This document shows positions 12,067 to 60,886 of a stretch of DNA of 64,000 nucleotides, one piece after another. Position 1 is the first letter of the stretch. Every line of letters starts with the position of its first letter. Under the pieces are notes generated by a model. It did no database searches and was not told the origin of the DNA. It saw only the letters and a program-made list of their open reading frames with translations. The stretch spans positions 1,240 through 65,239 of the forward strand of contig JAZRUG010000015.1 of NCBI GenBank assembly GCA_045652425.1. The letters are read 5' to 3'. A program made the translations under genes and the position numbers. Source of the stretch: Eubacteriales bacterium. GTDB lineage: Bacteria > Bacillota > Clostridia > Oscillospirales > CAG-272.

Positions 12067-12095
12067 TTGACTTTTTTGAAAAGTTGTATTATAGT
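12067..12095 (+). promoter_or_regulatory. Sigma-70 type promoter of the B12 operon
   Basis: TTGACT (12067..12072), 17-nt spacer, TATAGT (12090..12095), about 25 nt upstream of riboswitch P1. Confidence 0.65.
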
Positions 12096-12120
12096 GTAAA
12101 AAGGTAAACATAAATACTCG

Positions 12121-12306
12121 AAGATACGGTTTGAAAAGTTAAACACTTAGTAGACGAAATAGGGAATTCGGTGTAAACCCGAAACAACCGCCATTACTGT
12201 ATATGTCGAACTGGGAGCATAAATAACCATTGGGAGTTTTCCCGAGAAGGATTGCTCATTTTGTGATTTTTCACATCGCCATGAGTCAGGAAACCTGCCG
12301 TATCTT
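12121..12306 (+). ncRNA. Cobalamin (B12) riboswitch aptamer
   Basis: 9-bp P1 aagatacgg/ccgtatctt; core AATAGGGAATTCGGTGTAAACCCGAAAC...CCGCCATTACTGT; B12 box AGTCAGGAAACCTGCC. Confidence 0.88.
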
Positions 12307-12337
12307 TTTAGGTTCAACACAACTTGGGTGAGAAGAG

Positions 12338-12383
12338 TGCAACCGACTTATTGCTATACAGCAGTTTAGGTTTGCATTTTTTA
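12338..12383 (+). terminator. Probable riboswitch expression-platform terminator
   Basis: tgcaacc...ggtttgca stem with inner tgct/agca pairing, followed by TTTTTTAT. Confidence 0.5.
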
Positions 12384-12435
12384 TACCCATAGAATTCGAA
12401 GTCTTTTTTTGCTGTATTATATATTAAGTCAGTTG

Positions 12436-12475
12436 TACTCTTTTGACCTTTTGGTGAAAGAGTATTTTTTATTTT
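12436..12475 (+). terminator. Second terminator-like hairpin in the leader
   Basis: tactcttt-N13-aaagagta followed by TTTTTTATTTT, 24 nt before the first ORF. Confidence 0.5.
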
Positions 12476-12498
12476 GTAATTGTAAAGGAGGGAAAATC

Positions 12499-12816
12499 GT
12501 GACACCTGATGAAAAAAAGTCCTTGGCGGAAGAACTTTTGCGTCAAAAAGAAAAAGAGCTCGGAAGACTGCCTCGCAAGGACGACTTTGATGAAGCTACA
12601 CGGTCGCGAATTAAAGCCTTCCTAGGACCTTGGCCAAGAGCATTGGAGGCCGCAGGATTAAAGGAACCGCGAGTTATTCTTCCAAAATCCCAAAAAAGAA
12701 AAAAAGCAGCAACAAAATCAAAAAAAGAAGCCATTTCAGCGCGACAAAAATTGGAAAGGCGCAGAGCTCGAGCAAAGGAACAAAAAGCTTCTTTAGAAAA
12801 TGAAATCAAAGAATAA
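12499..12816 (+). CDS. Small, very basic protein with one homing-endonuclease-associated-repeat-like motif
   Basis: GTG start 6 nt after AAAGGAGGG. Motif GRLPRKDDFDEATRSRIKAFLGPWPRALEAAGL. Lys/Arg-rich coiled C-terminal tail. Confidence 0.6.
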   Translation: MTPDEKKSLAEELLRQKEKELGRLPRKDDFDEATRSRIKAFLGPWPRALEAAGLKEPRVILPKSQKRKKAATKSKKEAISARQKLERRRARAKEQKASLENEIKE

Positions 12817-12842
12817 CTATCTATTAAAAGGAGAACTTTGTA

Positions 12843-14138
12843 ATGAAAAAAAGATTATTCAGCATTCTGCTTGCATTCGTATTGGTATTCTCAATGATAC
12901 ATTTGACATCGTTTGCTACAGACGAAGACATCGTTTACTTCTCAATCAGCTATGATGGACAATTCATTGAAGGTCAGGACGGCAAAAAAATTTCATATTC
13001 CCCTATTTCTGTTTCAGCATTGTCAAATATAAATTTAGCTGACTACGGACTCGAAGAATTCTTCTATGACGGAGATGGGGATAATAAATATGACATAACT
13101 TTACTTCATCTATACATCTATATTCACGAACAAATACTTGGTCTAGACTGGAATGACATAATGGTTTCTGGAGGTTCCGGAAGTATTTTCTTTGAATCAG
13201 GGCTTTTCGGCTTTGAAGATTGCAATTTGAATTACTACTACAACGGCTCATATCCCGAATTATATCCCGGTTGGGGAACTACTGCTGATTGCCTTTCACT
13301 CTCTAACGGAGATTTTTGCGATATTGCAGGTTATAGTAGCTGGTCATTTTGGAGCGACTCTGCAACAGGATTTCTCTACTTTGCAGATGAAGATGATAAC
13401 ATCACACACAACTATAACACCGACGCCAATACCCCCACCGACATTAAGCTTGTAAAAAGCGGAGGCGGTTTTGGAGGTGAATTAAATTTTAACACCATTG
13501 CCAATTATGATGTTTACTATGGTACATCATTAGATAATCGTGTTGGAACAGTTACAACTGACGAAAACGGTATAGCAACCCTTCCCACGCTTGATGCAGG
13601 AACTTATGTACTTTGGTGCGATGGTGGATACGGTGAAGAAAACCCCATGGATATTGTATCGGCCCCCGCCTATGCAACACTTACCGTAAATCAAGGCGCA
13701 TCAAATCCCCCTGTCGAAAAAACACCTTTAGAAAAAGCTGTTGAAGGAACACCTTTGAGTATCGGCGTTACCTCGACCAATGACAATGTAGTAATTGTCC
13801 CAACATCAAAAAACAATACTGCACTTACTCAAAACGAACTTATCAATATCTTATCTGACGAATCAATTACAATAACCGCAAACAATGGAATAATCGGTAC
13901 GGGTTGCAAAATCTCCATAAATGAAGAAGAAACTGAACTTGTAGTTATGGGCGATATAGACGGCGACGGCATTGTAAATGTATTTGATGCATTGATTTTG
14001 AAAAAAGCATTAACCAATAATACAAATCTTGAATCCATTATTGAGTTTGCCGGTGATGTTGATGGCAACAAAGAATTATCTGAATCAGACATTGATAAAA
14101 TCCTTTCGCATATAGTTGGAGAATCCTATATCGACTAA
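12843..14138 (+). CDS. Secreted dockerin protein with N-terminal DUF4430-like module and an Ig-like module
   Basis: Signal peptide. C-terminal two-segment dockerin GDIDGDGIVNVFDALILKKAL / GDVDGNKELSESDIDKILSHIVG. The N-terminal region resembles DUF4430 only weakly. Confidence 0.65.
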   Translation: MKKRLFSILLAFVLVFSMIHLTSFATDEDIVYFSISYDGQFIEGQDGKKISYSPISVSALSNINLADYGLEEFFYDGDGDNKYDITLLHLYIYIHEQILGLDWNDIMVSGGSGSIFFESGLFGFEDCNLNYYYNGSYPELYPGWGTTADCLSLSNGDFCDIAGYSSWSFWSDSATGFLYFADEDDNITHNYNTDANTPTDIKLVKSGGGFGGELNFNTIANYDVYYGTSLDNRVGTVTTDENGIATLPTLDAGTYVLWCDGGYGEENPMDIVSAPAYATLTVNQGASNPPVEKTPLEKAVEGTPLSIGVTSTNDNVVIVPTSKNNTALTQNELINILSDESITITANNGIIGTGCKISINEEETELVVMGDIDGDGIVNVFDALILKKALTNNTNLESIIEFAGDVDGNKELSESDIDKILSHIVGESYID

Positions 14139-14175
14139 AGAAACTATTAACTTATTTTTTGGGAGAACTTTGGTG

Positions 14176-16167
14176 ATGAAAAAGAAACTTCTCTGCTTTT
14201 TACTCATTACAGTAATGCTATTTACAACAATTCCGTTGTCAATATTTGCAAACGAAAATGAGCAACAGAAAAAAAGCGTTAGCGATGTATTAAACACCAC
14301 GTTAGCGCAACTTGCCAATACCGTAACAGCCCCCTCGTTTGGTACAAGTGCAGGTGAGTGGACTGTTCTTTGTCTTGCGCGCGGTGAATACTACGAAAAA
14401 GATAACGTTTATTTTAACGATTACTATAATAGAATCGTTGAATACGTAAATACTCAAGCACAAAAAATAAACATGAACGGTGCGTTACACAAATCCAAAT
14501 CTACAGACAATTCAAGATTAATACTCGCCCTCTCTTCTATTGGTAAAGATGCAACGTCTGTAGGCGATTGGAATTTGATTACTCCATACAATGATTTTAA
14601 TTGGATAAAAAAACAAGGTATAAACGGTGTTATTTTCGCCTTAATCGCACTAGATGCCAACAATTACCAAACAACCGATTCCACAATTCGTCAGCAATGT
14701 ATTGATTATCTGTTTGAAAAGCAGCTTGATGATGGTGGTTGGGCTATGTCGGGTAAAACTTTTAATACCGATATTACTGCAATGGCTTTGCAGTCTTTAT
14801 ACCCCTATCGCAACGAACAAGGCGTAACTGAAGTTGCCAATAAAGCTTTTTCTCGTTTATCCGAAGAGCAACTTGAAACCGGTGGATTTCTTTACGGCCC
14901 TGATGAAACCTCAGAAAGTGCTTCGCAATTCATTGTAGCTTGTACTACCTGGGGAATAAATCCACATACTGATAGTAGATTTATTAAAAACGGTAAGTCC
15001 GCTATAGATAATTTACTTTCGTATTACGCAGAAAATAATGCTATGTTTAAGCATTTTATCGATGGCGATTCCAACGATATGGCAACCGACCAAGCTTGTT
15101 ACGCACTTATTTCATATAATCGTTTCATAAACGGAAAAACTGCACTATATGATTACACTGACGTAGTTTTTGAAGGTACTGAACAAACCGTTATCGGTCC
15201 CCCTAAAGTTACTCTCGGTCTTCCGTCGGCAATAACCGACGACATCGGACGAACATTTAATGCCACAATAAATCTTGACCGCTGGGATAATTCTGCAGAA
15301 TATAAACTCATCGATTTTGTGATAAATGTTCCAACCGGATTAAGTGTAACCAACATTACCGCTAACAATCGTTTTGTTGGCGGTACGCTGAACTACAATC
15401 TCGAAGAAGATACCGGCAAATTACGTGTGGTTTACTTTGATGCAAATAATAATACCAGTCTTACAGTCAGCGGAACTACCTTCCCCATTTCAGCCTTCAC
15501 GATTACTTTTCGTGTAGACTCTGCAACTGCAGGAGATAGACTTGGAATAAATATTGGCGGAATGTCTTTAAAACGCACGTCAGATGCAACAGCCGAAGAA
15601 TCAATGACGATTGTTGACTCTACTTCTGCAAACGGAAAGATATCCGTCGTAGCAGGAATTTCATACAGTGCCGTATGTCTTTACACAGGTGATGATATTG
15701 ACATTATCCCCTCCACAAAAAAGGCAATCGCAATATCACTAACCGGAATAGAAAACACAGTAAAGCTTTTGTATGATGACGGTACAAACAAATATGAATT
15801 TAAGTACAGTCAAGAAATTTCAAAAAAGGCAGGAATTTCAACTTACATTGCCTTGGTAGATTCTTCTATTGATATGACAGCATTTGTAAACAAATCCAAC
15901 TTTACCTTCGAAGAAACAAATACAAACAATCTAACTTTCGGCGACGCAAACGCTGACGGAGTTATCAACGCCCAAGATGCTCTTATAGCTGTAGACACTT
16001 GGCTACGCAAGAATGACACGATTTCCGATAACGATATATTAGCGCTAAATGTAAACTGCGATAGTAGAATTAATACTTTTGATGCATTGGGTATCGTCGA
16101 AGCCTTCGTGAACGGCAGCGAGTATTCTATAATTACAAAAGCGGCTACGCTTTCTACCAAAAATTAA
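14176..16167 (+). CDS. Secreted adaptor protein: alpha/alpha-toroid (prenyltransferase/terpene-cyclase-like repeats) + cohesin-like module + dockerin
   Basis: ATG at 14176 after GGGAGA; signal peptide; DDGGWAMSG and ETGGFLYG repeats; cohesin-like stretch (FNATINLDRW...YKLIDFVINVPTGLSV...GKLRVVYFD); dockerin GDANADGVINAQDALIAVD / CDSRINTFDALGIVEAFV. Confidence 0.7.
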   Translation: MKKKLLCFLLITVMLFTTIPLSIFANENEQQKKSVSDVLNTTLAQLANTVTAPSFGTSAGEWTVLCLARGEYYEKDNVYFNDYYNRIVEYVNTQAQKINMNGALHKSKSTDNSRLILALSSIGKDATSVGDWNLITPYNDFNWIKKQGINGVIFALIALDANNYQTTDSTIRQQCIDYLFEKQLDDGGWAMSGKTFNTDITAMALQSLYPYRNEQGVTEVANKAFSRLSEEQLETGGFLYGPDETSESASQFIVACTTWGINPHTDSRFIKNGKSAIDNLLSYYAENNAMFKHFIDGDSNDMATDQACYALISYNRFINGKTALYDYTDVVFEGTEQTVIGPPKVTLGLPSAITDDIGRTFNATINLDRWDNSAEYKLIDFVINVPTGLSVTNITANNRFVGGTLNYNLEEDTGKLRVVYFDANNNTSLTVSGTTFPISAFTITFRVDSATAGDRLGINIGGMSLKRTSDATAEESMTIVDSTSANGKISVVAGISYSAVCLYTGDDIDIIPSTKKAIAISLTGIENTVKLLYDDGTNKYEFKYSQEISKKAGISTYIALVDSSIDMTAFVNKSNFTFEETNTNNLTFGDANADGVINAQDALIAVDTWLRKNDTISDNDILALNVNCDSRINTFDALGIVEAFVNGSEYSIITKAATLSTKN

Positions 16168-16175
16168 GCAATAGA

Positions 16176-16203
16176 TTAAGGGGGATATAAAATTCCCCCT
16201 TAA
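16176..16203 (+). other. Intra-operon 10-bp hairpin (partial terminator or mRNA stabiliser)
   Basis: ttaaggggga-N8-ttcccccttaa followed by cttttac, between the adaptor gene and the anchored-cohesin gene. Confidence 0.4.
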
Positions 16204-16225
16204 CTTTTACACAAGGAGAATTATT

Positions 16226-16852
16226 ATGAGCAAACAACTATTGAATAAAAAAACTAAAATGACATTACTTTTAAGTATAAACGCCGTTTTATTACTTCTT
16301 TTATTGATAATTATTCTTCTTGTCACAAAAAAAGACATCCGATTTAATGATTCCCCTACGCTTACCATTGAAACACCCCCAAAAATCAGCCTTTCTAAAA
16401 CAAACGAGTTTTTGGTGGACGTAAATATTTCCTCATTTGGAGATACACTCTACCCCGCTGTCAGTATGAATATTTCTTTTGACCCGTCAAGACTTGAATT
16501 TCTTAACGTTGAAGAAGGAAACGTATTTATCAGAAATGATGAAAATGACGTAACTCAAAAACTTCCTCAATGGAGTTTTAATTCTGAACAATGCAACAAC
16601 ACGGGAATAATCAGCATTATGTATCTTGATACAACGGGCGGAAAAAATGCCTTCAGCAAAGACCTTCTTGCTGATGATAACAATGTAGTACTTCGCCTTA
16701 AGTTCCGTTTACGCGGAAGCGCACGAAAAGGCGACGTATATGATTTAATCTTTGAGGATGCCGTATTTGCCGCTTCAAATGAATCGGATAGCCTGGCAAT
16801 CACACGCGATACCTTAAAAGTCAAAAACGGTAAAATCGTAATAGGAGAATAA
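16226..16852 (+). CDS. Membrane-anchored single-cohesin protein
   Basis: N-terminal TM (LLLSINAVLLLLLLIIILLV), then a roughly 150-aa cohesin-like domain (VDVNISSFGDTLYPAVSMNISFDPSRLEFLNVEEGNVF ... VVLRLKFRLRGSARKGDVYDLIFED ... VKNGKIVIG). Confidence 0.7.
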   Translation: MSKQLLNKKTKMTLLLSINAVLLLLLLIIILLVTKKDIRFNDSPTLTIETPPKISLSKTNEFLVDVNISSFGDTLYPAVSMNISFDPSRLEFLNVEEGNVFIRNDENDVTQKLPQWSFNSEQCNNTGIISIMYLDTTGGKNAFSKDLLADDNNVVLRLKFRLRGSARKGDVYDLIFEDAVFAASNESDSLAITRDTLKVKNGKIVIGE

Positions 16853-16854
16853 TA

Positions 16855-18087
16855 ATGAAAAAAATATTGAGTTTTATATTTATTTTATCACTTTTACTTT
16901 CAATTACGGCATGTAGTGGTAACTATGCAAAAGTTGATTTAAGAAAACCAATTGATATTCCTCAAAACGGTATTATTGAAAAACAACTGTTAGACGAAAT
17001 CAAAGCAGAAAATGCCATTGCTACTTTTACCAGCAAATCAAACAACTTAAAATACGAATGGATAATATTCGGAAGCGATCTTGAAGAAACTAAAGACATC
17101 AATTTATCACTTTCATTAGAAGAAAAAGAGGGTAGCGTTTCAGTCAAATTCAACGAAACTGCCGACTTTGGTTTCCCTTCGCTCTTGTCAATCTACTTAA
17201 ATAAAAAATGGACTGCAAACAGCGCTTCCGCCTACAATGGTGAAAACGCTGAATATTCAGTTTCAATCACCGGAAGTAAAACAAGTATCCTCAATATTTC
17301 CATTAACAAAACTGTTCCAAATCTTGAAATCTTCCCCGACGAAACGCAACAAACTGACGATCTTCTTTGCCCCGAATCCACTTCACCTCCAGAAACCATT
17401 CTCTCTCCGAACGAAACCAACAAAGTGGATAATTATCTTTCCGGCACAATTACAGAAGAAAACAACGAATTTCGCCAAGAAGAAACACAACAAACAAGCA
17501 ATATTCACTCAAATGATACATACATAACAGACAACTATCTTTCTAACACACTTCCTGAAGAAAACCGCGTTTATTCAGACGGCAACATCACTAACCAAGA
17601 TAAATATAAAACCGATCCCATTCCTGAAGGTAAACCCTTACCGGTTGAACCCGAAAATCAAGAAGTCAACAACAAAAAAGTTCTTACCTGCACAATTTCA
17701 ATAGAATGTTCAACAATTTTAAACAACCTATCTGTCCTTGATCCCGACAAACTTGAACTCGTTCCGTCAAACGGTGTGATTTTAGCCCCCATAAAAGTAT
17801 CTTTTTACGAGGGCGAGTCGGTATTTAACGTACTTCAGCGTGTATGCAAAGAAAAAGGTATTCATTTGGAATCTTCTTGGACACCTATCTACAACAGCGC
17901 ATACATAGAAGGCATTCACAATTTATACGAATTTGACTGCGGTGAGCTTTCAGGTTGGATGTACCGCGTTAACGGCTGGTATCCCAATTACGGCTCTTCA
18001 AGATACCAACTTGTAGACGGAGAGATCATCGAATGGCGTTATACATGCGACCTCGGCAAAGACATCGGTTGTGATTGGATGGGATAA
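16855..18087 (+). CDS. Lipoprotein with C-terminal DUF4430 (transcobalamin beta-domain-like) module
   Basis: Lipobox LSITAC. C-terminus NLYEFDCGELSGWMYRVNGWYPNYGSSRYQLVDGEIIEWRYTCDLGKDIG is canonical DUF4430. Low-complexity linker with DNYLS.T..EEN repeats. Confidence 0.8.
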   Translation: MKKILSFIFILSLLLSITACSGNYAKVDLRKPIDIPQNGIIEKQLLDEIKAENAIATFTSKSNNLKYEWIIFGSDLEETKDINLSLSLEEKEGSVSVKFNETADFGFPSLLSIYLNKKWTANSASAYNGENAEYSVSITGSKTSILNISINKTVPNLEIFPDETQQTDDLLCPESTSPPETILSPNETNKVDNYLSGTITEENNEFRQEETQQTSNIHSNDTYITDNYLSNTLPEENRVYSDGNITNQDKYKTDPIPEGKPLPVEPENQEVNNKKVLTCTISIECSTILNNLSVLDPDKLELVPSNGVILAPIKVSFYEGESVFNVLQRVCKEKGIHLESSWTPIYNSAYIEGIHNLYEFDCGELSGWMYRVNGWYPNYGSSRYQLVDGEIIEWRYTCDLGKDIGCDWMG

Positions 18088-18089
18088 TT

Positions 18090-18980
18090 ATGCGAGATTC
18101 TTTTTCTAATTTTCATCCCTTCAATAACTTTTTATATTTCGCCTTGGTTATTGGCTTTTCTCTTGCGTTATATCATCCATTAGCGCAAGTAATATCCCTT
18201 ATTTGCGCATGTATTTACGTCATCAGCATAGAAAGCAAAAAAAGCGTGTTGTTTATTTTTAAGTATTGTTTACCCATGGTGATTTTAACGACCTTTATAA
18301 ATCCCGCCTTTAACCACGAGGGGACAACTATTTTACTTTATTTCAGCAATGGAAATCCATTAACATTTGAAAGCATTTTGTACGGCATATCGGCAGGCTC
18401 TATGCTTGTAACGGTATTGCTTTGGTTTTCGTCGTTTAACCGAGTAATGACATCGGATAAGTTTATTTATCTATTCGGTAAGCTTATTCCTGCTTTATCG
18501 TTGGTATTAAGTATGTCCTTGCGATTTGTACCGAAATTCAAATCACAAATGGCAACCGTTACGGAAGCACAACGAAGCATTGGCCGTGACGTGTCAAGCG
18601 GAAGCCTGTTCAGCAGAACAAAAACGGCGATTCTTATTTTTTCTATTATGATTACTTGGTCACTTGAAAATGCCATTGAAACGGCGGACAGTATGAAAAG
18701 CCGCGGATATGGGCTAAAAGGCCGAACCGCTTTTTCAATCTACCACTTCGATGAACGCGATAAATATACATTGGCTTGGCTTTGCTTTTGCGGTCTGTTT
18801 TTGCTTATCGGTACGATACTTAACGCCTTTGGGTTTCGATATTTTCCAAATATCCGTTACGCTGCGCTAGATAGGACCACTATTCCATTTTACTGCGTAT
18901 ATTTTGCCCTTTGCATTACCCCTGTCGTATTAAACATAAAGGAGGATAAAAAATGGAAAACTTTAGTTTCAAAGACGTAA
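18090..18980 (+). CDS. ecfT: ECF transporter transmembrane (T) component, CbiQ family
   Basis: Polytopic membrane protein with a CbiQ-like layout. ATG at 18090 lies 3 nt after the upstream stop. Coupling-helix-type region EAQRSIGRD...ETADSMKSRGY. Confidence 0.8.
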   Translation: MRDSFSNFHPFNNFLYFALVIGFSLALYHPLAQVISLICACIYVISIESKKSVLFIFKYCLPMVILTTFINPAFNHEGTTILLYFSNGNPLTFESILYGISAGSMLVTVLLWFSSFNRVMTSDKFIYLFGKLIPALSLVLSMSLRFVPKFKSQMATVTEAQRSIGRDVSSGSLFSRTKTAILIFSIMITWSLENAIETADSMKSRGYGLKGRTAFSIYHFDERDKYTLAWLCFCGLFLLIGTILNAFGFRYFPNIRYAALDRTTIPFYCVYFALCITPVVLNIKEDKKWKTLVSKT

Positions 18981-21598
18981 ACTTTTCATATCCCGAACAA
19001 AAAAATAAAGCTCTCCAAAATATCTCCTTTGATATTTCACAGGGAGAATTTGTTATTCTTTGCGGTCCTTCGGGTTGCGGAAAATCCACGTTGCTCCGTC
19101 ACCTTAAAACCAGCCTTGCACCTCACGGAATTTTGACAGGTGATATTCTGTTTGATGGCAATCTTTTAAGCGAAACCGATGAGCGCACACAATCGCAGAA
19201 AATCGGATTTGTGTTGCAATCCCCTGAAAATCAGGTGGTAACCGATAAAGTATGGCACGAATTGGCTTTCGGTCTTGAAAGTCTTGGCTACGATACACCA
19301 ACAATTCGCCGCCGTGTCGCTGAAGTTGCGGCATTCTTCGGTATTGAGAATTGGTTTTATAAAAACGTTACCGAGCTTTCGGGAGGTCAAAAGCAGCTTT
19401 TAAGTCTTGCTTCTGTTATGGCGATGAGCCCTAAAATTTTGGTACTTGATGAGCCCACCGCACAGCTTGATCCTATTGCCGCCGCTGACTTTTTGGATTT
19501 GCTTGGTAAAATTAACCGCGAACTTGGCATTACCGTTATTCTGACCGAACACCGCCTTGAAGAAGCGTTCCCCTTTGCAACAAGAGTTATTGTTATGGAA
19601 AAGGGTGCGATTGTTTGTGACGATGCTCCTGGAAAGGTTGGACTGCATCTTCGCGATAAGGATTGCGGTATGTTCCTAGCAATGCCTACAGCCATGCGTG
19701 TTTGGGCAGGAATTGAAAACACTCTTGCCTGTCCTCTCACTGTGCGTGACGGAAGTGATTTTTTAACCGAGCTAAATAAACAAAAAACTATTTTACCTTT
19801 AAATGCAGTTCAAAATACCCCCTATAACCATGAAATCACCTTGCAATGTAATGAAATATGGTTCCGTTATGAAAAAAACTTGCCCGATGTTGTAAAAGGC
19901 CTTTCGCTCACCCTGCATAAAGGTGAATTTTATGCAATACTCGGTGGTAACGGTGCGGGTAAAACCACATCGCTTAAAGTTATTTCACGACTTTACTCCG
20001 CCTATCGCGGTACACTTCAAACTAACGGCAAAATAGGAATGTTACCGCAAAATCCGCAAGCGCTTTTTGTGAAAAGAACCGTGCGTGAGGATTTATACGA
20101 AGCACTGTGCGACATAAGGCTTTCCAAAGAGGAAAAGAAAAAACATGTTGCGCGCATAGTCGCTCTTTGCGGACTCAGTGAATTTCTCGACAGACACCCA
20201 TATGATATTTCGGGGGGGGAGCAACAACGAACCGCACTTGCCAAAGTGCTTTTGACTGCACCCGATATTCTTTTACTTGATGAACCTACAAAGGGGGTTG
20301 ATGCAGAATTTAAGGTGACCTTTGCCGATATTATTGATAAACTGACCAAACAGGGTGTTACCGTTCTTATGGTGAGCCACGATGTGCCTTTTTGTTCAGA
20401 GTATGCTCACCGTTGTGGAATGTTCTTTGACGGAAACATTGTAGCAGAAGGCTCTCCCCGTGAGTTTTTCTCGGGTAACAGTTTTTATACGACTCCTGCA
20501 AACCGTATGGCAAGGCATTTGATTCCCAATGCAGTTACGGTTGATGATATTATTGTTTGCTGCGGCGGAAAAATCAAAAAGAAGCAAGAGGAATTTAATG
20601 AGGTTTCACCTCTGCCCTCGCCTCCGCCGAGAAGCGTAAACTTTAAGCCTCAGCCTCTAAAACTGTGGCGAAAGCTTCTTGCCATAATTTCGGGAATTGT
20701 TGCCTTCGGTGTGTTCCTATATGCGACTGGTATTACCAACCTGTCCTCCCTCGTGACTTCTTCAGGGCTAAGCACACAAGGCAAGGAACAGTTATCATTG
20801 TATATCGTTTTGTTTGCATCTCTGACGGTATTTTTGTTTGCAATCGGACGGCGAAGTGAACCGCCGCTTGTAGCACAAACACCAAAAGAAAAGCGTAATT
20901 TAAGCAACCGTACCATTGCAGCAACCGTTTGTATTTTGCTGTTGATTCCGCTTACAATCTTTGCCGGTATCTTCTATATGGATGATCGGCAGTATAATCT
21001 TGTAGCTTTGCTGATCTTACTTGAATGTATGCTGCCCTTTATTCTTGTGTTTGAAGGCAGAAAGCCTAAAGCAAGAGAGCTTGTTACCATAGCCGTACTT
21101 TGTGCCATCGGCATTGCAGGTAGAAGTTTGTTCTTTATGCTCCCGCAGTTCAAACCCGTGCTTGCGCTTACAATAATTGCCGGTGTTGCCTTTGGTGGTG
21201 AGGCAGGCTTTTTGGTGGGAGCTGTTACAATGCTTACCTCTAATATGCTTTTCTCACAAGGGCCTTGGACACCTTGGCAAATGTTTGCAATGGGAATTAT
21301 CGGTTTCCTTGCCGGTGTACTTTTCAAAAAGGGCTGGCTTCGAAGAACCCGTGTATCTCTTGCTGTATTCGGCGCATTTACCGCGATTATCATTTACGGC
21401 GGTATTATGAATCCTGCCGCCGCATTTATGGTATCGTCAGAAGGCATAACATTAAAAACGTTGTTTGCCTACTACATTACGGGATTTCCTATGGATCTCG
21501 TTCATGCTTTTGGAACGGTAATATTTATTATGATTGCCGCCGAGCCTATGCTTGAAAAAATGGATCGAATAAAGGTTAAATACGGCTTGGTCGAATAA
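18953..21598 (+). CDS. Fused ECF ATPase-ATPase-S component (EcfA1-EcfA2 plus membrane domain)
   Basis: Two ABC cassettes (GPSGCGKST/LSGGQKQ/LVLDEP and GGNGAGKTT/ISGGEQQ/LLLDEP), a Pro-rich linker, then a roughly 300-aa polytopic domain with ECF-S-like GPWTPWQM. Confidence 0.8.
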   Translation: MENFSFKDVNFSYPEQKNKALQNISFDISQGEFVILCGPSGCGKSTLLRHLKTSLAPHGILTGDILFDGNLLSETDERTQSQKIGFVLQSPENQVVTDKVWHELAFGLESLGYDTPTIRRRVAEVAAFFGIENWFYKNVTELSGGQKQLLSLASVMAMSPKILVLDEPTAQLDPIAAADFLDLLGKINRELGITVILTEHRLEEAFPFATRVIVMEKGAIVCDDAPGKVGLHLRDKDCGMFLAMPTAMRVWAGIENTLACPLTVRDGSDFLTELNKQKTILPLNAVQNTPYNHEITLQCNEIWFRYEKNLPDVVKGLSLTLHKGEFYAILGGNGAGKTTSLKVISRLYSAYRGTLQTNGKIGMLPQNPQALFVKRTVREDLYEALCDIRLSKEEKKKHVARIVALCGLSEFLDRHPYDISGGEQQRTALAKVLLTAPDILLLDEPTKGVDAEFKVTFADIIDKLTKQGVTVLMVSHDVPFCSEYAHRCGMFFDGNIVAEGSPREFFSGNSFYTTPANRMARHLIPNAVTVDDIIVCCGGKIKKKQEEFNEVSPLPSPPPRSVNFKPQPLKLWRKLLAIISGIVAFGVFLYATGITNLSSLVTSSGLSTQGKEQLSLYIVLFASLTVFLFAIGRRSEPPLVAQTPKEKRNLSNRTIAATVCILLLIPLTIFAGIFYMDDRQYNLVALLILLECMLPFILVFEGRKPKARELVTIAVLCAIGIAGRSLFFMLPQFKPVLALTIIAGVAFGGEAGFLVGAVTMLTSNMLFSQGPWTPWQMFAMGIIGFLAGVLFKKGWLRRTRVSLAVFGAFTAIIIYGGIMNPAAAFMVSSEGITLKTLFAYYITGFPMDLVHAFGTVIFIMIAAEPMLEKMDRIKVKYGLVE

Positions 21599-21601
21599 AT
21601 C

Positions 21602-21650
21602 AAAAAAGCGCAAATTTCTATGAGACTCATATAAATTCGCGCTTTTTTAT
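21602..21650. terminator. Bidirectional terminator closing the B12 operon and trmO
   Basis: aaaaaagcgcaaattt-N15-aaattcgcgctttttt. Confidence 0.7.
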
Positions 21651-21659
21651 TTTCTTAAG

Positions 21660-22346
21660 CTAATTTATTGAAACTGCTACTACTGTCAGCAAATTTCCGT
21701 CAACGGTAAAATCTACGTCATATCCTGCAAAGGTCATTTTATATATACGTTTCTCGTCATCCTGATATGATGGGCGCGGATCATCTGCAAGGCAGTCAAG
21801 AAGCGGCTGTCTTTTTTCTTCGTCTATCTTTTGGAGTAATTCCCTATCTATCACAACTTCAAGCCTATGACCAGTTTCTTCATCGGCATAACCGCCCTTC
21901 GCTTCGGGTTTCGAATCAGCATACGGCAGATACGGTTTTATATCATATATAGGCGTACCGTCAAGCAGGTCTGCGCCGCCTACAATCAACACGTATCCGT
22001 TTTCTTTTTCGTGTTCCACAGAAATAAGCTCTACACAAGACAGTCCCAAATTATTAGGTCTGAATGGCGAACGACTTGCAAAAACGCCTACTCTTCTGTT
22101 TCCGCCAAGTCTTGGCGGTCTTACCGTCGGCGACCACCCATCTCTATGAGCAAGAGAAAAATCAAATATAAGCCACAAGTGTGAAAAACCTTCTATTCCC
22201 CTTAAAGCTTCTTTGCTTCTGTAATCGGGCAAAAATACAATCTTCGCTCTCAAAGATTTTACTCTTCCGCTTTGGCGCGGTATACCAAATTTCTGCGAAA
22301 AATCCGTCTTTATATGCGCTATGGGTTTTATAATCATTCCGTTCAC
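21660..22346 (-). CDS. trmO: tRNA (t6A37-N6)-methyltransferase TrmO/TsaA
   Basis: IKPIAHIKTDFSQKFGIPRQ, HLWLIFDF, RSPFRPN and GTPIYDIKPY motifs. Confidence 0.88.
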   Translation of the reverse strand: MNGMIIKPIAHIKTDFSQKFGIPRQSGRVKSLRAKIVFLPDYRSKEALRGIEGFSHLWLIFDFSLAHRDGWSPTVRPPRLGGNRRVGVFASRSPFRPNNLGLSCVELISVEHEKENGYVLIVGGADLLDGTPIYDIKPYLPYADSKPEAKGGYADEETGHRLEVVIDRELLQKIDEEKRQPLLDCLADDPRPSYQDDEKRIYKMTFAGYDVDFTVDGNLLTVVAVSIN

Positions 22347-35221: not shown

Positions 35222-38200
35222 TTACGCTGCTACGTTAAGAGTCTGAAGAACAGCCTTACCTGCTGCAAGTTCAACCTCGATAGTATATGTATAGCTCTTG
35301 CCCTTGTAGTTGCTTGTACAGAGATAACCGTCCGTTGTATTGCCTATGTACGTAGCACTTGTACTTGTTGTAAACAACTGACCTACATTATATGCGTTAA
35401 CGTTAGTCAAGCCTGTCTTTTCAACCTTATCAAGAACGTTGCCGTTTTGGTCTTTTATTGTAACTCTTACAGCAATAATAGGATAGTTGGACTCAACAAT
35501 ACCTAATTTATACTGAGTAGGCGCTTCAAGCGTCTCTTTTGTAGCCAACTTAGTCAAACCGACATATTGTTTCTCTGTCTCGTTTGTCATAAATTCGTGG
35601 GGTCTGAGAATAATACAGCTCGGCTCACTTGTTGCGAGTGTCTTGAACGTGTATTCGTGTTCCCACCACGTTGAATCATATCCGTTTAACAATGTAAACA
35701 GTTTATTCTGTTCGGATTCAAGTGTATCCGTCTGCTCTATCATCAAAACATAACTCTTGTCAGGATTAATCTTTCCGTTGCTGTCTCTGACAACTTTTAC
35801 CGACTGAACCATACGTGTATGACCGCCGCCGGCTGTTCTATACATAAAATCGCCGGGCTGTGCCAGTGCATAAGATTCATACATAGCTTCTGCACCATAA
35901 AGCTTCATTACAGAGTTCGTATAGGAAGAAACCCCATAGTACAAATCCTTGAGTCCGAGAAGCTTCATATTGGGATTGCCTCTTGACGAAGCGTGGAGTC
36001 TCGATACTTTTTGATAGCCGTGATACATCGCTGCACTGCAGTGGTTACCTACTACGTAGTTCCAGTCTGTAGTACCACTGTAATTTGAATCACCTGCACC
36101 AAGTGTATAAACTGTATTTCCTTTAAATGTTTTTTCGCTCGGTTCACCTAACGCTGCTTCAAAGTCTGCTAAAGTTGCTCTTGTGTTCGCATAAAGAACA
36201 CCTTTATAAATTGTACCTTTTACAAATTTTGTATTTGGAACAAAGCCTGTAGCGCCTTCAAGATTAGAATATTGGAAAGTAGTCGCAGGTGTCCAATAAA
36301 TGTTGGACTGTTCTTTCATATGATTGATAGGCGTCTGAGGCATGTTACTGAAATCAACGTTAAATGAATCATAATATGACGCGTACAATGTAGAAAGATT
36401 TACTGTAGGTTCAGTATAGCTGTATGAAGCAATGGTCTTCATACCTTCGTTTCCAACTTCTGCATTAACTGTCAATGTATATGTTTTTCCGTCAACAAGA
36501 TACGGAAGCACTTTGCTCATATCAAACTGCGACAAGTTTACAAGGTTCATATTCTGGTCGCCGTATTTATTGCAATATACGGTTTCATTGTAGAACTCGC
36601 CGTCATTGCCGTTTCTGCTCAATTTTACGTTAACTGCAATAATCTGCTTGTTCGAAATAAGTTCACCGGAAAGGATACCTGTCTTTATAGCATTTGCTCC
36701 GTCCAAACCAACCACAAACGTTGTTGTTTTACTTTGAGTACCCGCAGCAAGTTCGGGAAGCGTTACGGGAATAAATCCACCGCTGTATAAAGAATCATAC
36801 GTTTTTTCAGTCGACTGGAAGTGAGTATTGTTTTTCATAGTAGGATTGAAAGTCATAAGCTTCAGCGCATCTCCGCTACCGGCATCTTCCATAACCATGT
36901 AAATACTTCTTCCTGCGCCTGCTTCGTCGCTCTGACAACAAATCAACACGTCTCCGCGCTTACATGCAGCGTAAGCCGCTTTCATTCCTGCTTCGCCGAC
37001 AGATGCCACAATTGCATCCGTATATTTGGCTGTAGATGCAACCTTATAACCGCCTACAGCAACAGTTCCCTGTTTTCCGGGAATAAAGCTTGTAAGAGTC
37101 GTCAACCAAACCTTATTGGTTCCAACCTTGTTCCATACGTTAACTATCATTCCGGTATAGTCGGATGCAGGGAAAAAGCTTTCTATTTCATAATATTTTT
37201 CATCTAACTTATACTTATTAGACTCAACATAAGTTGCCTGATCGCCGGTATAACCAAAATCATTTATACCCTCTATAGGACCGTAATATACGTTTGTTCC
37301 GTCCGATCTGGTCTTTATGTACGATTTAAATTCTCCAAGTTCATGTTTTGCGTTGTTAATATACGGCATACCGTAATAAATTGTGCCTGCCGTGTACGTC
37401 TTTCCGCCGCTGTGCTTAACGCCGTTCGCAATAACCTCTTCGGTCAAATCAATATTTGTACTCGGTGTCCATGCAAAGTTAGCATTCGCATTCATCTCAG
37501 CTACAACAATATCACGGAGTCTTTCTGCATTTTCAGAATCGTAAAGATTGCTTGAAGCTGCAACATATTCATCATACTTATCGAGAATATTGGCTTTTAT
37601 CCATTGTTTATCTTTTTCAGTTTCCTGATCCATTTCGTCTGCATACGCAGCATTTGCTACTTCAAGTACGGTTCTGCTTATAGCATCAGAATAGCTTGTA
37701 TATGTCTTTCCGTTATAGTCATACTCTATATATGCAACAGCAACGATATAGTTATCGTAGTCATTTAACTGAATGTCATCATAAACTGCAGCAAACGTGG
37801 TTTTTTCGTCATTGTTGTAAACACCAAGTTCATCATATTCTTCTCTGAATTTTGTTCCGAATGCTGTCAATTCTTCTATGCCTTGTACTGTGCTTATATC
37901 GGTAATCTTACTTGCACCGTAAACGGAACCGTCCCAAATATAGAAACCGTAATCCTTTACAGTTACATCTTTTTCGGCACTTCTTGACATTTCCGCAACA
38001 AATCGAAGTCCGCCTTTTGTATTTTTGGTGCTAATCTGTGCACCTAAAACTGTCGGTGTCGGGTCATCAACAACCTTTACCGTTTTATTCAAACCGGTTA
38101 TGGTTTTTCCGCAATAAGTACCTGTAACGGTAACATTCTTTCCTGCTTCGCTGCTATCACCGTTAAATATAAATTTACTGTCGTCGGGAGAGTAAGTAAT

Positions 38201-39475
38201 TTGTGCAGTTTTACTGTCGGTATAAGTAACATTAATTACCAAACCGTCTGCTTTGTACGCTTCACCAACAAACATAAGATCGTTTGATGGTGCTGTTTTC
38301 ACACTTACAGACGAAACCATATCAGCAGGATAATATATCGCATCGGCCAATCTGCTTGTAGGAAATTTAGAGCTTGTTATTGCCGTATTTCCGATGTAAT
38401 CTGAAAGGTCAAACGTAACATATGGCTGAATACACGTTGAATCCAAAGTAACACCATTGTATTTTCTGAACGGCGAAGAGTATGTGAATTCACCGCCGTC
38501 TATCTTGAAATATACAGTTGAATTCTTATATCCTACTCCGGTACCCGAGTGAGCATAAATAATATTGAAGAAAGTACCTCCGGTAATATGATAATACGTA
38601 TTACCGCAATGAAGCGTAGATTCCTGTGAATCTCCCCAAACAGCACCGCCAATAGTACCTCCGGCAATAGTAACGTTTATATCTCCCCAATGGGTATGGT
38701 TAGCAAGACCTCTGTTACCGCCGTATACTCTATCCCAAGAACCGCCTTTAATAGTCAAATTTACATCTGACGTAAGATTTCCATATCTTCTACCGCCTGC
38801 CAAGGAAATAAAGTTGCTTACTGTATCGTTAGTAATTCCCACTCCGTTATTCGTGCAAACAACACCGTCTTCGAAAACAACGTTATAACCGTATGCGCAA
38901 ATCGTAGAATCATCATAATCGCCCGAATCATACGGATTCAAAACAGATTCTATGGTTATATCATCAAACACGGTATCTCCACCGAGACACAAGTGTGAAC
39001 CTTCCTCTATGATAAGTCTACCGCCTTGGCCTTTGATAGTGATCTTATTATTACCGTGGGTCGGCATAAAAAAGTCTCTGTCAGAATATCTGTTGGCAGC
39101 AACGGTATTCTCAACGCCTATTTTTACGTCCCCTACAAGTACAATCGTACCACCTTTATTATTCAGTTTTTCAACAGCTTGATACAGTACGCTGTTCAGC
39201 GAAAAGTTTTCTCCGGTCGAGCTGAAACAAGAGCAATAATATCTACTCGCATTTTCCGCTGTTACCCCGTGTGTACAAGTTTTCGTTGTATCAAGTGCTA
39301 CTCTTTCTACCGCCTTCAAAGGACTTGTTGGCGAAGAGCCGTCGCCGGTACCGTTATCCGAAATATAAATCGTCTCTCCGGATGCGGCTGATACGGGAGC
39401 AACAAACATAGAAGCCATAACAGCTACCAAAAGTATTGCCACCGCAATCATTGAAAAATGCATAAAATTTTTCAT
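35222..39475 (-). CDS. Giant secreted multidomain protein: beta-helix-like N-terminus, Ig-like modules, internally duplicated putative Cys/His hydrolase-like module
   Basis: 1417 aa with signal peptide (cleavage near VSA-ASG). The N-terminal ~380 aa is homologous to the N-termini of ORFs 60887 and 62848. No dockerin, LPXTG or SLH signal seen. Confidence 0.6.
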   Translation of the reverse strand: MKNFMHFSMIAVAILLVAVMASMFVAPVSAASGETIYISDNGTGDGSSPTSPLKAVERVALDTTKTCTHGVTAENASRYYCSCFSSTGENFSLNSVLYQAVEKLNNKGGTIVLVGDVKIGVENTVAANRYSDRDFFMPTHGNNKITIKGQGGRLIIEEGSHLCLGGDTVFDDITIESVLNPYDSGDYDDSTICAYGYNVVFEDGVVCTNNGVGITNDTVSNFISLAGGRRYGNLTSDVNLTIKGGSWDRVYGGNRGLANHTHWGDINVTIAGGTIGGAVWGDSQESTLHCGNTYYHITGGTFFNIIYAHSGTGVGYKNSTVYFKIDGGEFTYSSPFRKYNGVTLDSTCIQPYVTFDLSDYIGNTAITSSKFPTSRLADAIYYPADMVSSVSVKTAPSNDLMFVGEAYKADGLVINVTYTDSKTAQITYSPDDSKFIFNGDSSEAGKNVTVTGTYCGKTITGLNKTVKVVDDPTPTVLGAQISTKNTKGGLRFVAEMSRSAEKDVTVKDYGFYIWDGSVYGASKITDISTVQGIEELTAFGTKFREEYDELGVYNNDEKTTFAAVYDDIQLNDYDNYIVAVAYIEYDYNGKTYTSYSDAISRTVLEVANAAYADEMDQETEKDKQWIKANILDKYDEYVAASSNLYDSENAERLRDIVVAEMNANANFAWTPSTNIDLTEEVIANGVKHSGGKTYTAGTIYYGMPYINNAKHELGEFKSYIKTRSDGTNVYYGPIEGINDFGYTGDQATYVESNKYKLDEKYYEIESFFPASDYTGMIVNVWNKVGTNKVWLTTLTSFIPGKQGTVAVGGYKVASTAKYTDAIVASVGEAGMKAAYAACKRGDVLICCQSDEAGAGRSIYMVMEDAGSGDALKLMTFNPTMKNNTHFQSTEKTYDSLYSGGFIPVTLPELAAGTQSKTTTFVVGLDGANAIKTGILSGELISNKQIIAVNVKLSRNGNDGEFYNETVYCNKYGDQNMNLVNLSQFDMSKVLPYLVDGKTYTLTVNAEVGNEGMKTIASYSYTEPTVNLSTLYASYYDSFNVDFSNMPQTPINHMKEQSNIYWTPATTFQYSNLEGATGFVPNTKFVKGTIYKGVLYANTRATLADFEAALGEPSEKTFKGNTVYTLGAGDSNYSGTTDWNYVVGNHCSAAMYHGYQKVSRLHASSRGNPNMKLLGLKDLYYGVSSYTNSVMKLYGAEAMYESYALAQPGDFMYRTAGGGHTRMVQSVKVVRDSNGKINPDKSYVLMIEQTDTLESEQNKLFTLLNGYDSTWWEHEYTFKTLATSEPSCIILRPHEFMTNETEKQYVGLTKLATKETLEAPTQYKLGIVESNYPIIAVRVTIKDQNGNVLDKVEKTGLTNVNAYNVGQLFTTSTSATYIGNTTDGYLCTSNYKGKSYTYTIEVELAAGKAVLQTLNVAA

Positions 39476-48022: not shown

Positions 48023-48098
<76 letters not shown>

Positions 48099-52712: not shown

Positions 52713-53185
52713 CCGTACCAGACCGCGCGTTCGCGTGATATTATGCCGAAAGGTCGTATCGCGAGGAAAGTCCGGGCTTCATAGGGCAGGATAACGGATA
52801 ACGTCCGCCGGAGGCAACTCCCGGGAGAGTGCAACAGAGATATACCGCCTATACTATTTGCGGATGGCTTCGCCATACCGAGTAAAGATGGTTAGGCTGT
52901 TTTTTCAAAACAGCCTATACCGCTAATATTTTGTACGTATAGGTAAGGGTGGAAAGGCGAGGTAAGAGCTCACCTTGCTCTATGGTAACATAGAGGAAAT
53001 GTAAACCCTATCCGAAGCAACACCGTATAAGAGTATTGCAGAAATGCAAGCGGCTGCCCGTCGTTTACTCTTGGGTGGCGCGGGTTTTTACCCGAAGCTT
53101 GTCGGTAACGCCAAGCGAAGATAGATGAACGCGGTTAAGCTTTATGCTTTTCACAGAACCCGGCTTACAAGTCTGATATAACCAT
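52713..53185 (+). ncRNA. rnpB: RNase P RNA, bacterial type A
   Basis: GAGGAAAGTCCGGGCTTCATAGGGCAGG, GGTAAGGGTGGAAAGGCGAGGTAAGAGCTCACC and ACAGAACCCGGCTTA. Ends are approximate, within about 10 nt. Confidence 0.92.
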
Positions 53186-60826: not shown

Positions 60827-60886
60827 ATTAATAGTTATTAGCCAATTGAGTTGATGTAACAAAAATTGAAAAGGAGATTTATACCG

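Follow-up and report, generated by a model that had tools for sequence, protein, structure and literature searches.

A cobalamin-riboswitch operon of a gut Clostridium with predicted cohesin-dockerin-tethered, transcobalamin-like surface proteins and a CbrT-like importer

Competition for cobamides shapes gut communities, and to our knowledge the capture of these molecules at the cell surface is known in detail only for Bacteroides. Here we analyze a 64,000-nucleotide (nt) stretch of DNA (hereafter the window) from an Eubacteriales bacterium of the Oscillospirales, in which an operon at positions 12,067 to 21,650 joins a cobalamin riboswitch and secreted dockerin proteins to a membrane-anchored cohesin and an energy-coupling factor (ECF) importer. 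We propose, with moderate confidence, that this operon serves B12-repressed scavenging of corrinoids in a Gram-positive gut Clostridium, wherein binders tethered by cohesin-dockerin pairs hand their ligand to a CbrT-like importer. Its seven open reading frames (ORFs) are predicted to encode, in order, a small basic protein (ORF1), two secreted dockerin proteins (ORF2 and ORF3, the latter with an alpha/alpha toroid and an internal cohesin-like module), the anchored cohesin (ORF4), a DUF4430 lipoprotein (ORF5), the coupling subunit EcfT (ORF6), and a fusion of EcfA, EcfA′, and an S-component (ORF7).

In Bacteroides thetaiotaomicron, BtuG, BtuH, BtuJ, and BtuK feed BtuB in an extracellular cobamide relay (PMC13616437). 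That relay resembles the operon described here in that several surface-tethered corrinoid binders are encoded with a riboswitch-controlled transporter and are proposed to pass their ligand inward, but its proteins have unrelated folds, are held by a lipid tether on the outer membrane, and serve a TonB-dependent importer. For Gram-positive Firmicutes, the same 2026 review states that extracellular capture “remains entirely uncharacterized” (PMC13616437). Surface proteins with SLBB and toroid domains, encoded with CbiO/CbiQ genes, were nonetheless predicted by Burroughs, Balaji, Iyer, and Aravind in 2007 to scavenge B12 in Gram-positive bacteria (PMC1796856). These proteins share with the window the combination of a toroid and an SLBB domain and the possibility of surface complexes, and their operons often encode another SLBB protein as well. 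Their attachments are LPXTG, Ig, FIVAR, fasciclin, and beta-propeller modules, however, whereas the window has a putative cohesin-dockerin pair, and the 2007 paper contains no mention of either dockerin or cohesin.

The importer has a well-defined counterpart in ECF-CbrT (PDB 6FNP; Santos et al. 2018, PMC5997447), which likewise comprises EcfT, two ATPases, and a CbrT-type S-component, and which works without any extracellular binder. The ECF module in the window differs in being dedicated to its operon, in having EcfA, EcfA′, and S fused within one protein of 881 amino acids (aa) that has extra hydrophobic segments, and in being accompanied by four extracytoplasmic proteins and a riboswitch. 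The lsa1836-1840 genes of Lactobacillus sakei encode an ECF transporter together with separate toroid and DUF4430 proteins; they were assigned to heme uptake, and the alpha and beta proteins were proposed to act as a heterodimer that captures a tetrapyrrole for the transporter (bioRxiv 10.1101/864751). As in the window, two different extracytoplasmic proteins carry the toroid and the beta domain there, and their genes accompany those for the S, A-A′, and T components, but no cohesin, dockerin, or HNH_repeat gene was reported. The same two domains, a toroid and a DUF4430 beta domain, make up human transcobalamin and intrinsic factor (PDB 2BB5), where they sandwich cobalamin. In the window they are divided between ORF3 and ORF5, and in the group of relatives called type A below their order is reversed, with the beta domain first.

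In Ruminococcus flavefaciens, ScaE is a single-cohesin anchor that binds X-dockerin modules. Such anchoring of cellulosomes and amylosomes, which occurs in the same lineage (Oscillospirales), resembles the arrangement in the window in that a cell-bound single cohesin would receive an X module plus dockerin, and in that a cohesin and a dockerin are combined in an adaptor protein. The cargo in the window, however, is a predicted vitamin-binding fold rather than a carbohydrate-active enzyme, a B12 riboswitch is present, and the anchor is an N-terminal membrane helix about 10 to 20 residues from the cohesin rather than a sortase or surface-layer homology wall anchor. Because cohesins occur singly in the operon proteins, and because a Pfam/TIGR search of the operon found no domain of a carbohydrate-active enzyme, the system uses cellulosome parts and yet is not a cellulosome. 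An earlier note on this DNA, made from the sequence alone, had stated that no description of cohesin-dockerin assembly in vitamin scavenging was known to its author. Our literature search, which did not cover most subscription journals, found no paper linking dockerins or cohesins to B12 or vitamin uptake, and the tethering of transcobalamin-like surface proteins by such modules appears to be undescribed; the idea of surface B12 scavenging itself dates from 2007 (PMC1796856). The comparisons below suggest that the new feature is the predicted tethering to a membrane-anchored cohesin, in an operon that is conserved in hundreds of uncultured gut species.

The riboswitch aptamer lies at positions 12110 to 12316 of the forward strand, on which the whole operon is encoded. 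The Rfam covariance model RF00174 matches this region over model positions 1 to 189 of 189 with 82.3 bits (gathering score 31.5, E 9e-19). The B12 box AGTCAGGAAACCTGCC is found at 12284 to 12299, and a 9-bp P1 helix is formed by pairing of AAGATACGG (12122-12130) with CCGTATCTT (12298-12306). Spaced 15 nt from the aptamer is a sigma-70-type promoter sequence, TTGACT-17-TATAGT (12067-12095), that was identified by consensus match (10 of 12 positions). In this AT-rich region, promoter-like sites are about as frequent as expected by chance (33 found versus 29 expected), so it is the position before the aptamer that lends this one its weight. On the other side of the aptamer, a long hairpin followed by U-rich sequence (12326-12449; dG −46.4 kcal/mol, z −6.8) is a plausible candidate for a terminator-type expression platform.

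The seven ORFs that follow are separated by gaps of 2 to 58 nt or overlap, and the operon is closed by a bidirectional intrinsic terminator hairpin (21602-21648; dG −17.8 kcal/mol, z −7.0), with a run of six A residues on its 5′ side and six U residues on its 3′ side, that is common to the operon and the convergent gene trmO (21660-22346, minus strand). A further GC-rich hairpin between ORF3 and ORF4 (16175-16204; dG −17 kcal/mol, z −5.2) has only CUUUU after its stem and may serve as a partial terminator or an mRNA stabilizer that sets the stoichiometry of binder to transporter. The near-consensus promoter, the aptamer with its B12 box and P1 helix, and the tight packing of the seven ORFs agree with the reading given in the earlier note, as does the bidirectional terminator; that there is one terminator holds only if the internal hairpin does not terminate. 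The proposal of control by B12 also gains support from the score of the aptamer in the window and from its retention in related loci.

Over 2,250 clusters of the protein collection contain relatives of ORF3, and a search of species-representative genomes gave 450 matches, the best 80 of which were taken for a comparison of loci. All 80 are from metagenome-assembled genomes of animal guts, labelled Acutalibacteraceae, Faecousia, Ruminococcus, Oscillospiraceae, Clostridia, and similar. Wherever the contig contains enough DNA, the genes occur in the same order, with a dockerin-bearing toroid protein followed directly by the anchored cohesin (about 208 aa) and then by the DUF4430 lipoprotein, EcfT, and EcfA-A′-S. 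Thus, the joint presence of genuine dockerins and a membrane-anchored cohesin that had been noted in the window is maintained across these loci, and in most relatives exactly one dockerin protein adjoins the anchored cohesin. A riboswitch was detected with Rfam in 8 of 10 related loci. When nhmmer was applied to the 53 loci with enough upstream DNA, it was found directly upstream in 50 and about 2.3 kb upstream in 2 more (52/53).

The modules of these proteins are conserved to different degrees. Mean pairwise identity over about 70 loci is highest for the DUF4430 domain of ORF5 (83%), followed by the ORF3 dockerin core (80%), the ORF4 cohesin (73%), the toroid (69%) and the internal cohesin (64%) of ORF3, the N-module found at the beginning of ORF2 (56%), and the membrane anchor of ORF4 (35%). 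The dockerin core of ORF3 and the cohesin of ORF4 are therefore better conserved than the toroid, the internal cohesin, and the N-module.

Both dockerins have the sequence features expected of this family, including tandem F-hand calcium loops that are each followed by a helix. ORF2 (12843-14138) encodes a 431-aa secreted protein with a signal peptide, an N-module of the kind we call type B, an X region, and a C-terminal dockerin (aa 370-418, nt 13950-14096) that scores 30.3 bits with Dockerin_1 (PF00404, cut-off 22.9) and has two canonical 12-residue calcium loops, DIDGDGIVNVFD and DVDGNKELSESD. The 663-aa secreted product of ORF3 (14176-16167, start codon ATG at 14176) carries, after its signal peptide, the toroid, a cohesin-like module, an X module, and a dockerin (aa 589-638, nt 15940-16089; Dockerin_1 24.1 bits, cut-off 22.9), again with two canonical 12-residue calcium loops, DANADGVINAQD and NVNCDSRINTFD.

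The protein predicted to receive a dockerin at the membrane is encoded by ORF4 (16226-16852; 208 aa). Its N-terminus is hydrophobic and looks uncleaved, with a membrane anchor at about aa 12 to 34, and a single cohesin begins about 10 to 20 residues after the anchor (PF00963, aa 62-188, nt 16409-16789; 33.2 bits, cut-off 24.1). The earlier description of ORF4 as a transmembrane anchor plus one cohesin is consistent with these data. Orthologues are also annotated with PF00963, and the family includes 2,838 clusters, nearly all of 208 aa and unnamed. Many orthologues (for example, L079:2755-3360) have a Cys directly after the hydrophobic segment (LLLVRCG), and one has a canonical lipobox, LVGC (L069:7217-7816), so some anchored cohesins may be lipoproteins rather than signal-anchored proteins.

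The module between the toroid and the dockerin of ORF3 was recognized as cohesin-like by profile comparison, since a Pfam search gave no match to this part of the window protein. It covers aa 337 to 493 (nt 15184-15654), and the X module then extends to nt 15900. Residues 336 to 575, used as a query in exhaustive HMMER searches, recovered 94 representative clusters. A profile built from 61 of them was aligned by hhalign with the ORF4 cohesin family at a probability of 92% (E 6e-7) over 131 to 147 columns, spanning the whole cohesin. The match is significant only with a diverse family, as an earlier comparison using close orthologues gave a probability of 2%. Within the stretch covered by this alignment, one homologue (P0170) scores 24.7 bits with Pfam Cohesin, above the cut-off of 24.1. 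Among solved structures, the profile of the entire cassette matches the cohesins 3ul4_A (E 0.013) and 2xdh_A (E 0.19), and its best dockerin match is ScaH of R. flavefaciens (8ajy_B, E 1e-4). These profile comparisons therefore indicate that ORF3 is composed of a toroid, a cohesin-like module, an X module, and a dockerin. The three modules that the earlier note had assigned to this protein are retained, although the toroid, which is recognized by structure prediction as discussed below, falls under the Pfam cut-offs. The same cohesin-like, X, and dockerin cassette is also present at the C-terminus of unrelated secreted proteins (P0167, P0217, and P0220).

A pattern of gene fission suggests a reason for the second dockerin protein. 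In most relatives, the ORF2 N-module and ORF3 constitute one protein of 900 to 970 aa, and residues 1 to 285 of ORF2 are 59% identical to the N-terminus of a fused 921-aa relative (P0002). At five of the six loci where the gene is split, the separated N-part terminates with a dockerin or a module resembling one, and at least three sequence types are represented. The window shares one dockerin type with L005 and L006, whereas the dockerin of L054 is of another kind (Dockerin_1, 3e-10), that of L039 represents a third type in which the motif GDVTADGIVNNADVLQINRK occurs twice, and L067 has no dockerin on its freed N-part. The differing dockerin sequences and junctions indicate that the splits were probably independent events. 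Because separate fissions each kept or gained a dockerin, attachment between the proteins through dockerins is suggested, and we regard this pattern as the best indirect sign that dockerins keep the partners together.

Two alternative N-modules are found among these proteins. Type A, present in other relatives, is a genuine DUF4430/SLBB domain, as shown by an hhalign probability of 99% (E 7e-18) after removal of the signal peptide, and type A relatives therefore have both transcobalamin domains, DUF4430 and toroid, in one chain. Type B, as seen in the window (ORF2 aa 28-285), consists of an alpha/beta domain and a prealbumin/DUF4198-like sandwich, and is modeled by AlphaFold2 (AF2) with a predicted local distance difference test (pLDDT) score of about 95 over aa 30 to 285. 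The two types are unrelated and are exchanged at the same gene position (window 12843-13697 versus L005:7778-9070). L005 is the closest relative of the window, with the same flanking genes and the same X-dockerin tail, and has type A in the ORF2 position. The earlier note had correctly recognized ORF2 as a secreted dockerin protein but had considered it DUF4430-like, an assignment that we reject: the hhalign probability against the DUF4430 family is below 1%, and Pfam DUF4430 has no match in ORF2 or in 63 family members. An apparent 97% hhalign match of ORF2 to the type A module disappeared once the common signal peptide was removed.

The nature of the importer is indicated by ORF7 (18953-21598), whose 881-aa product is an EcfA-EcfA′-S fusion with two ABC_tran domains (TIGR04520, 337 bits, cut-off 315). 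Its S-component (aa ~707-881, nt 21071-21595) matches ECF-ribofla_trS (35.3 bits) and ECF_trnsprt (32.6 bits), both above cut-off. In a comparison with all solved structures, the S domain matched only 6fnp_A (E 3.3e-6, residues 10-177 of 182), which we take to be the CbrT chain from its length, that of a 182-residue membrane chain. The 6FNP structure is that of ECF-CbrT from Lactobacillus delbrueckii, for which import of both cobalamin and cobinamide, but not of hemin, was shown biochemically (PMC5997447). The likeness of the S domain to CbrT supports the prediction of a dedicated corrinoid transporter, as the earlier note had proposed. We set aside a cobalt transporter of the CbiMNQO type, given the CbrT-like S domain and the absence of CbiM or CbiN domains from the Pfam search. 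By eye, about four additional hydrophobic segments separate the second ATPase domain from the S domain (aa ~575-705, nt 20675-21070).

The coupling subunit EcfT, of the CbiQ family, is encoded by ORF6 (18075-18980, with an alternative ATG start at 18090; PF02361, 27.8 bits, cut-off 25). Next to it, ORF5 (16855-18087) encodes a 410-aa lipoprotein with the lipobox ITAC, in which about 120 aa of low-complexity linker separate an N-domain from a DUF4430/SLBB domain at the C-terminus (PF14478, 53.8 bits, aa 320-397, nt 17812-18045). These findings match the products previously assigned to ORF5, ORF6, and ORF7. A sequence search of the PDB with ORF5 returned nothing useful. Transcobalamins carry DUF4430 at their C-terminus (PMC4350170), and this domain is the same as the beta-grasp that appears as SLBB in Burroughs et al. 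(PMC1796856). Of the transcobalamin-like parts named in the earlier note, the DUF4430 domain of ORF5 and the toroid of ORF3 stand and that of ORF2 does not. The two domains are on separate polypeptides in the window and are joined in one chain only in type A relatives.

From the riboswitch, the domain identities, the strict synteny, the co-conservation of modules, and the pattern of fusion and fission, we infer how the proposed scavenging system would operate. A fall in intracellular adenosylcobalamin would cause the riboswitch to permit read-through transcription, such that the dedicated importer, made of EcfT and the EcfA-EcfA′-CbrT-like fusion, is produced along with a lipoprotein whose transcobalamin beta-type (DUF4430/SLBB) domain sits on a long flexible linker. 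ORF4 would display a single cohesin on the outer face of the membrane via its N-terminal anchor. Two dockerin proteins would be secreted, with ORF3 contributing an alpha-type toroid and an internal cohesin, and ORF2 contributing an accessory binding module. Calcium-dependent docking of ORF3, through its dockerin, onto the ORF4 cohesin would place the toroid beside the transporter and the DUF4430 lipoprotein. The ORF2 dockerin would bind the internal cohesin of ORF3, or perhaps also ORF4, and docking of ORF2 to ORF3 would rejoin parts that are one polypeptide in most relatives. As in transcobalamin, a corrinoid would then be held between the toroid and the beta-grasp domain, which would deliver it to the CbrT-like S domain so that it can be imported at the expense of ATP.

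A more specific version of this proposal, which we offer tentatively and consider somewhat doubtful, is a cohesin-dockerin “split transcobalamin.” Here the anchored cohesin would dock the toroid, the cohesin of the toroid protein would dock interchangeable type A or type B modules, and the DUF4430 lipoprotein would close the sandwich. If true, this would constitute a reconfigurable surface relay for different cobamides in Gram-positive gut bacteria and a non-carbohydrate use of the cellulosome toolkit that is widespread in Oscillospirales, and it would include a riboswitch-controlled small HNH_repeat protein, the product of ORF1, as a further regulator.

Several findings weigh against a tethered corrinoid-scavenging system, and each is given below with the explanation that it favors. 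An unlikely alternative retains the corrinoid importer and holds that the dockerins attach their binders to a general scaffold encoded elsewhere, with the cohesins of ORF3 and ORF4 recruiting other dockerin proteins. The ORF3-type cassette is carried by proteins with glycoside hydrolase and CBM9 domains, by a DUF2961 protein, and by a 2013-aa DUF4430-toroid protein, a distribution that suggests a general self-linking cassette for surface display that is not B12-specific. Likewise, a 551-aa protein encoded elsewhere in the window (60866-62521, forward strand) has an X module and a dockerin of the ORF2 type (phmmer 1.5e-13 and 1.8e-14; Pfam Dockerin_1 18.4 bits, below cut-off), and relatives of the ORF2-type tail carry BspA-type leucine-rich repeats. 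Dockerin proteins are thus not confined to the B12 operon in this cell. Because both the cassette and the X-dockerin tail occur on unrelated proteins, the dockerins may be part of a broader surface system at the level of the genome. A mirror-tree analysis did not discriminate between the two cohesins as partners, in that the ORF3 dockerin gave a partial r of 0.42 with the ORF4 cohesin and 0.38 with the internal cohesin. However, the gene for the anchored cohesin lies inside the predicted B12-repressed operon, after a dockerin gene, throughout the 80 loci, and repression by B12 would be surprising for an anchor of general use, which weakens this explanation. The ORF3 dockerin and ORF4 cohesin are also among the most conserved modules of the operon, and the presence of exactly one dockerin protein beside the anchored cohesin in most relatives fits a dedicated pair better than a shared scaffold.

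A second alternative, which we judge to be quite improbable, is that the substrate is not complete cobalamin but cobinamide or other cobamide precursors, heme, or cobalt ions bound through the DUF4198-like module. B12 riboswitches control cobalt transporters too. ECF-CbrT carries cobinamide as well as cobalamin (PMC5997447), and heme was the reported substrate of the related L. sakei ECF operon, in which the alpha and beta proteins are separate (bioRxiv 10.1101/864751). Moreover, the binder module of ORF2 exhibits metal-capture signals rather than a B12-binding signature. Foldseek matched this module only to Ig-like sandwiches and Zcp, with Zcp (9mhl) on top at an E value of about 1e-3, and DUF4198 matches, though weak, occur in 20 of 63 ORF2 family members. 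Zcp is a zinc-capture protein that belongs to DUF4198 (PMC12663993), and the two signals are thus weak but convergent. Against these points, the S domain matches CbrT, with no CbiM match in the Pfam search, and hemin did not compete with B12 in ECF-CbrT (PMC5997447). The retention of a cobalamin riboswitch in 52 of 53 loci, and the correspondence of DUF4430 and the toroid to the two domains of transcobalamin, also argue for a corrinoid.

The tethering itself could be questioned if the cohesin and dockerin modules do not form a pair between proteins. ORF3 might be self-capped, might form head-to-tail polymers, or might use these modules as calcium-stabilized spacers, and the anchored cohesin might serve as an Ig-like spacer or interact directly with the transporter. 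The location of a cohesin-like module and a dockerin in one ORF3 chain, an arrangement that is conserved, is compatible with such roles. In the AF2 model of full-length ORF3, the cohesin-like, X, and dockerin parts have pLDDT below 50, so that the model is informative for the toroid only, and searches of PDB chains with the ORF4 sequence and family profile found no solved cohesin. We nevertheless consider this explanation very unlikely. Both dockerins keep duplicated canonical calcium loops and pass Pfam cut-offs, and the acquisition of differing dockerin types by split N-parts is hard to explain unless dockerins link proteins. Furthermore, the internal cohesin and the cohesin of ORF4 share only 16% identity, a divergence that is compatible with two distinct specificities.

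The toroid of ORF3 (aa ~40-330, nt 14293-15165) is all-helical in the AF2 model, with pLDDT of 70 to 96. A Foldseek search of the PDB with this model returned MstE, type II terpene cyclases, human and rat transcobalamin, and squalene-hopene cyclases, all with a probability of 1.0 and E values of about 1e-3. The match to transcobalamin (2bb5_A; probability 1.0) has a template modeling (TM) score of 0.45 and a sequence identity of about 14%, and terpene cyclases match equally well (TM about 0.45-0.5). Because cyclases and transcobalamin are returned alike, the model establishes a toroid fold but does not by itself establish a specific relationship with transcobalamin. It is nonetheless highly improbable that the toroid is a surface enzyme of the terpene-cyclase, prenyltransferase, or (alpha/alpha)6-hydrolase type whose link to B12 is incidental, as these Foldseek matches and the weak Pfam hits to Prenyltrans (16.2 bits, cut-off 26.5) and SQHop_cyclase would allow, since the sequence has no DxDD motif, the protein is secreted and encoded with an ECF-CbrT-type importer under a riboswitch across the 80 loci, and relatives fuse the toroid to DUF4430 to give the transcobalamin domain pair; the terpene-cyclase reading was set aside on these grounds.

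If tethered corrinoid scavenging is correct, cohesin-dockerin assembly would extend from polysaccharide degradation to micronutrient uptake, and the split loci would provide a natural case of gene fission compensated by the acquisition of a dockerin. The candidate Gram-positive system would also be widespread, as toroid-dockerin relatives are found in at least 450 species-level genomes and its families include thousands of protein clusters from gut metagenomes. Such a system would additionally be a source of small orthogonal cohesin-dockerin pairs and of a compact membrane anchor for the engineering of surface display.

The first gene of the operon might encode its regulator. ORF1 (12499-12816, with a GTG start at 12499) specifies a 105-aa basic cytoplasmic protein without a signal peptide, in agreement with the small basic product listed in the earlier note, and contains a Pfam HNH_repeat (PF18780, 1.7e-10). 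In each of 62 related loci (62/62), a homologue follows the riboswitch and precedes the first binder gene. The repeat is of a kind associated with homing endonucleases, and the protein has the strongly conserved core motif GRLPxKDDFDxxTRSRIKAFLGPWPRALEAAGLK.

At the other end of the operon, a DUF2284 gene directly follows the ECF genes in type A loci (L001:13775-14314, and L002 to L004); the window and L005 lack this gene and have the convergent trmO in its place. Elsewhere in the window, a 1417-aa ORF on the minus strand (35222-39475) matches no Pfam family above threshold and has a weak Big_3 match only. The forward strand also carries a tRNA (48023-48095) and a bacterial RNase P RNA of class A (52715-53183; 236 bits) that has an insertion of about 90 nt relative to the model.

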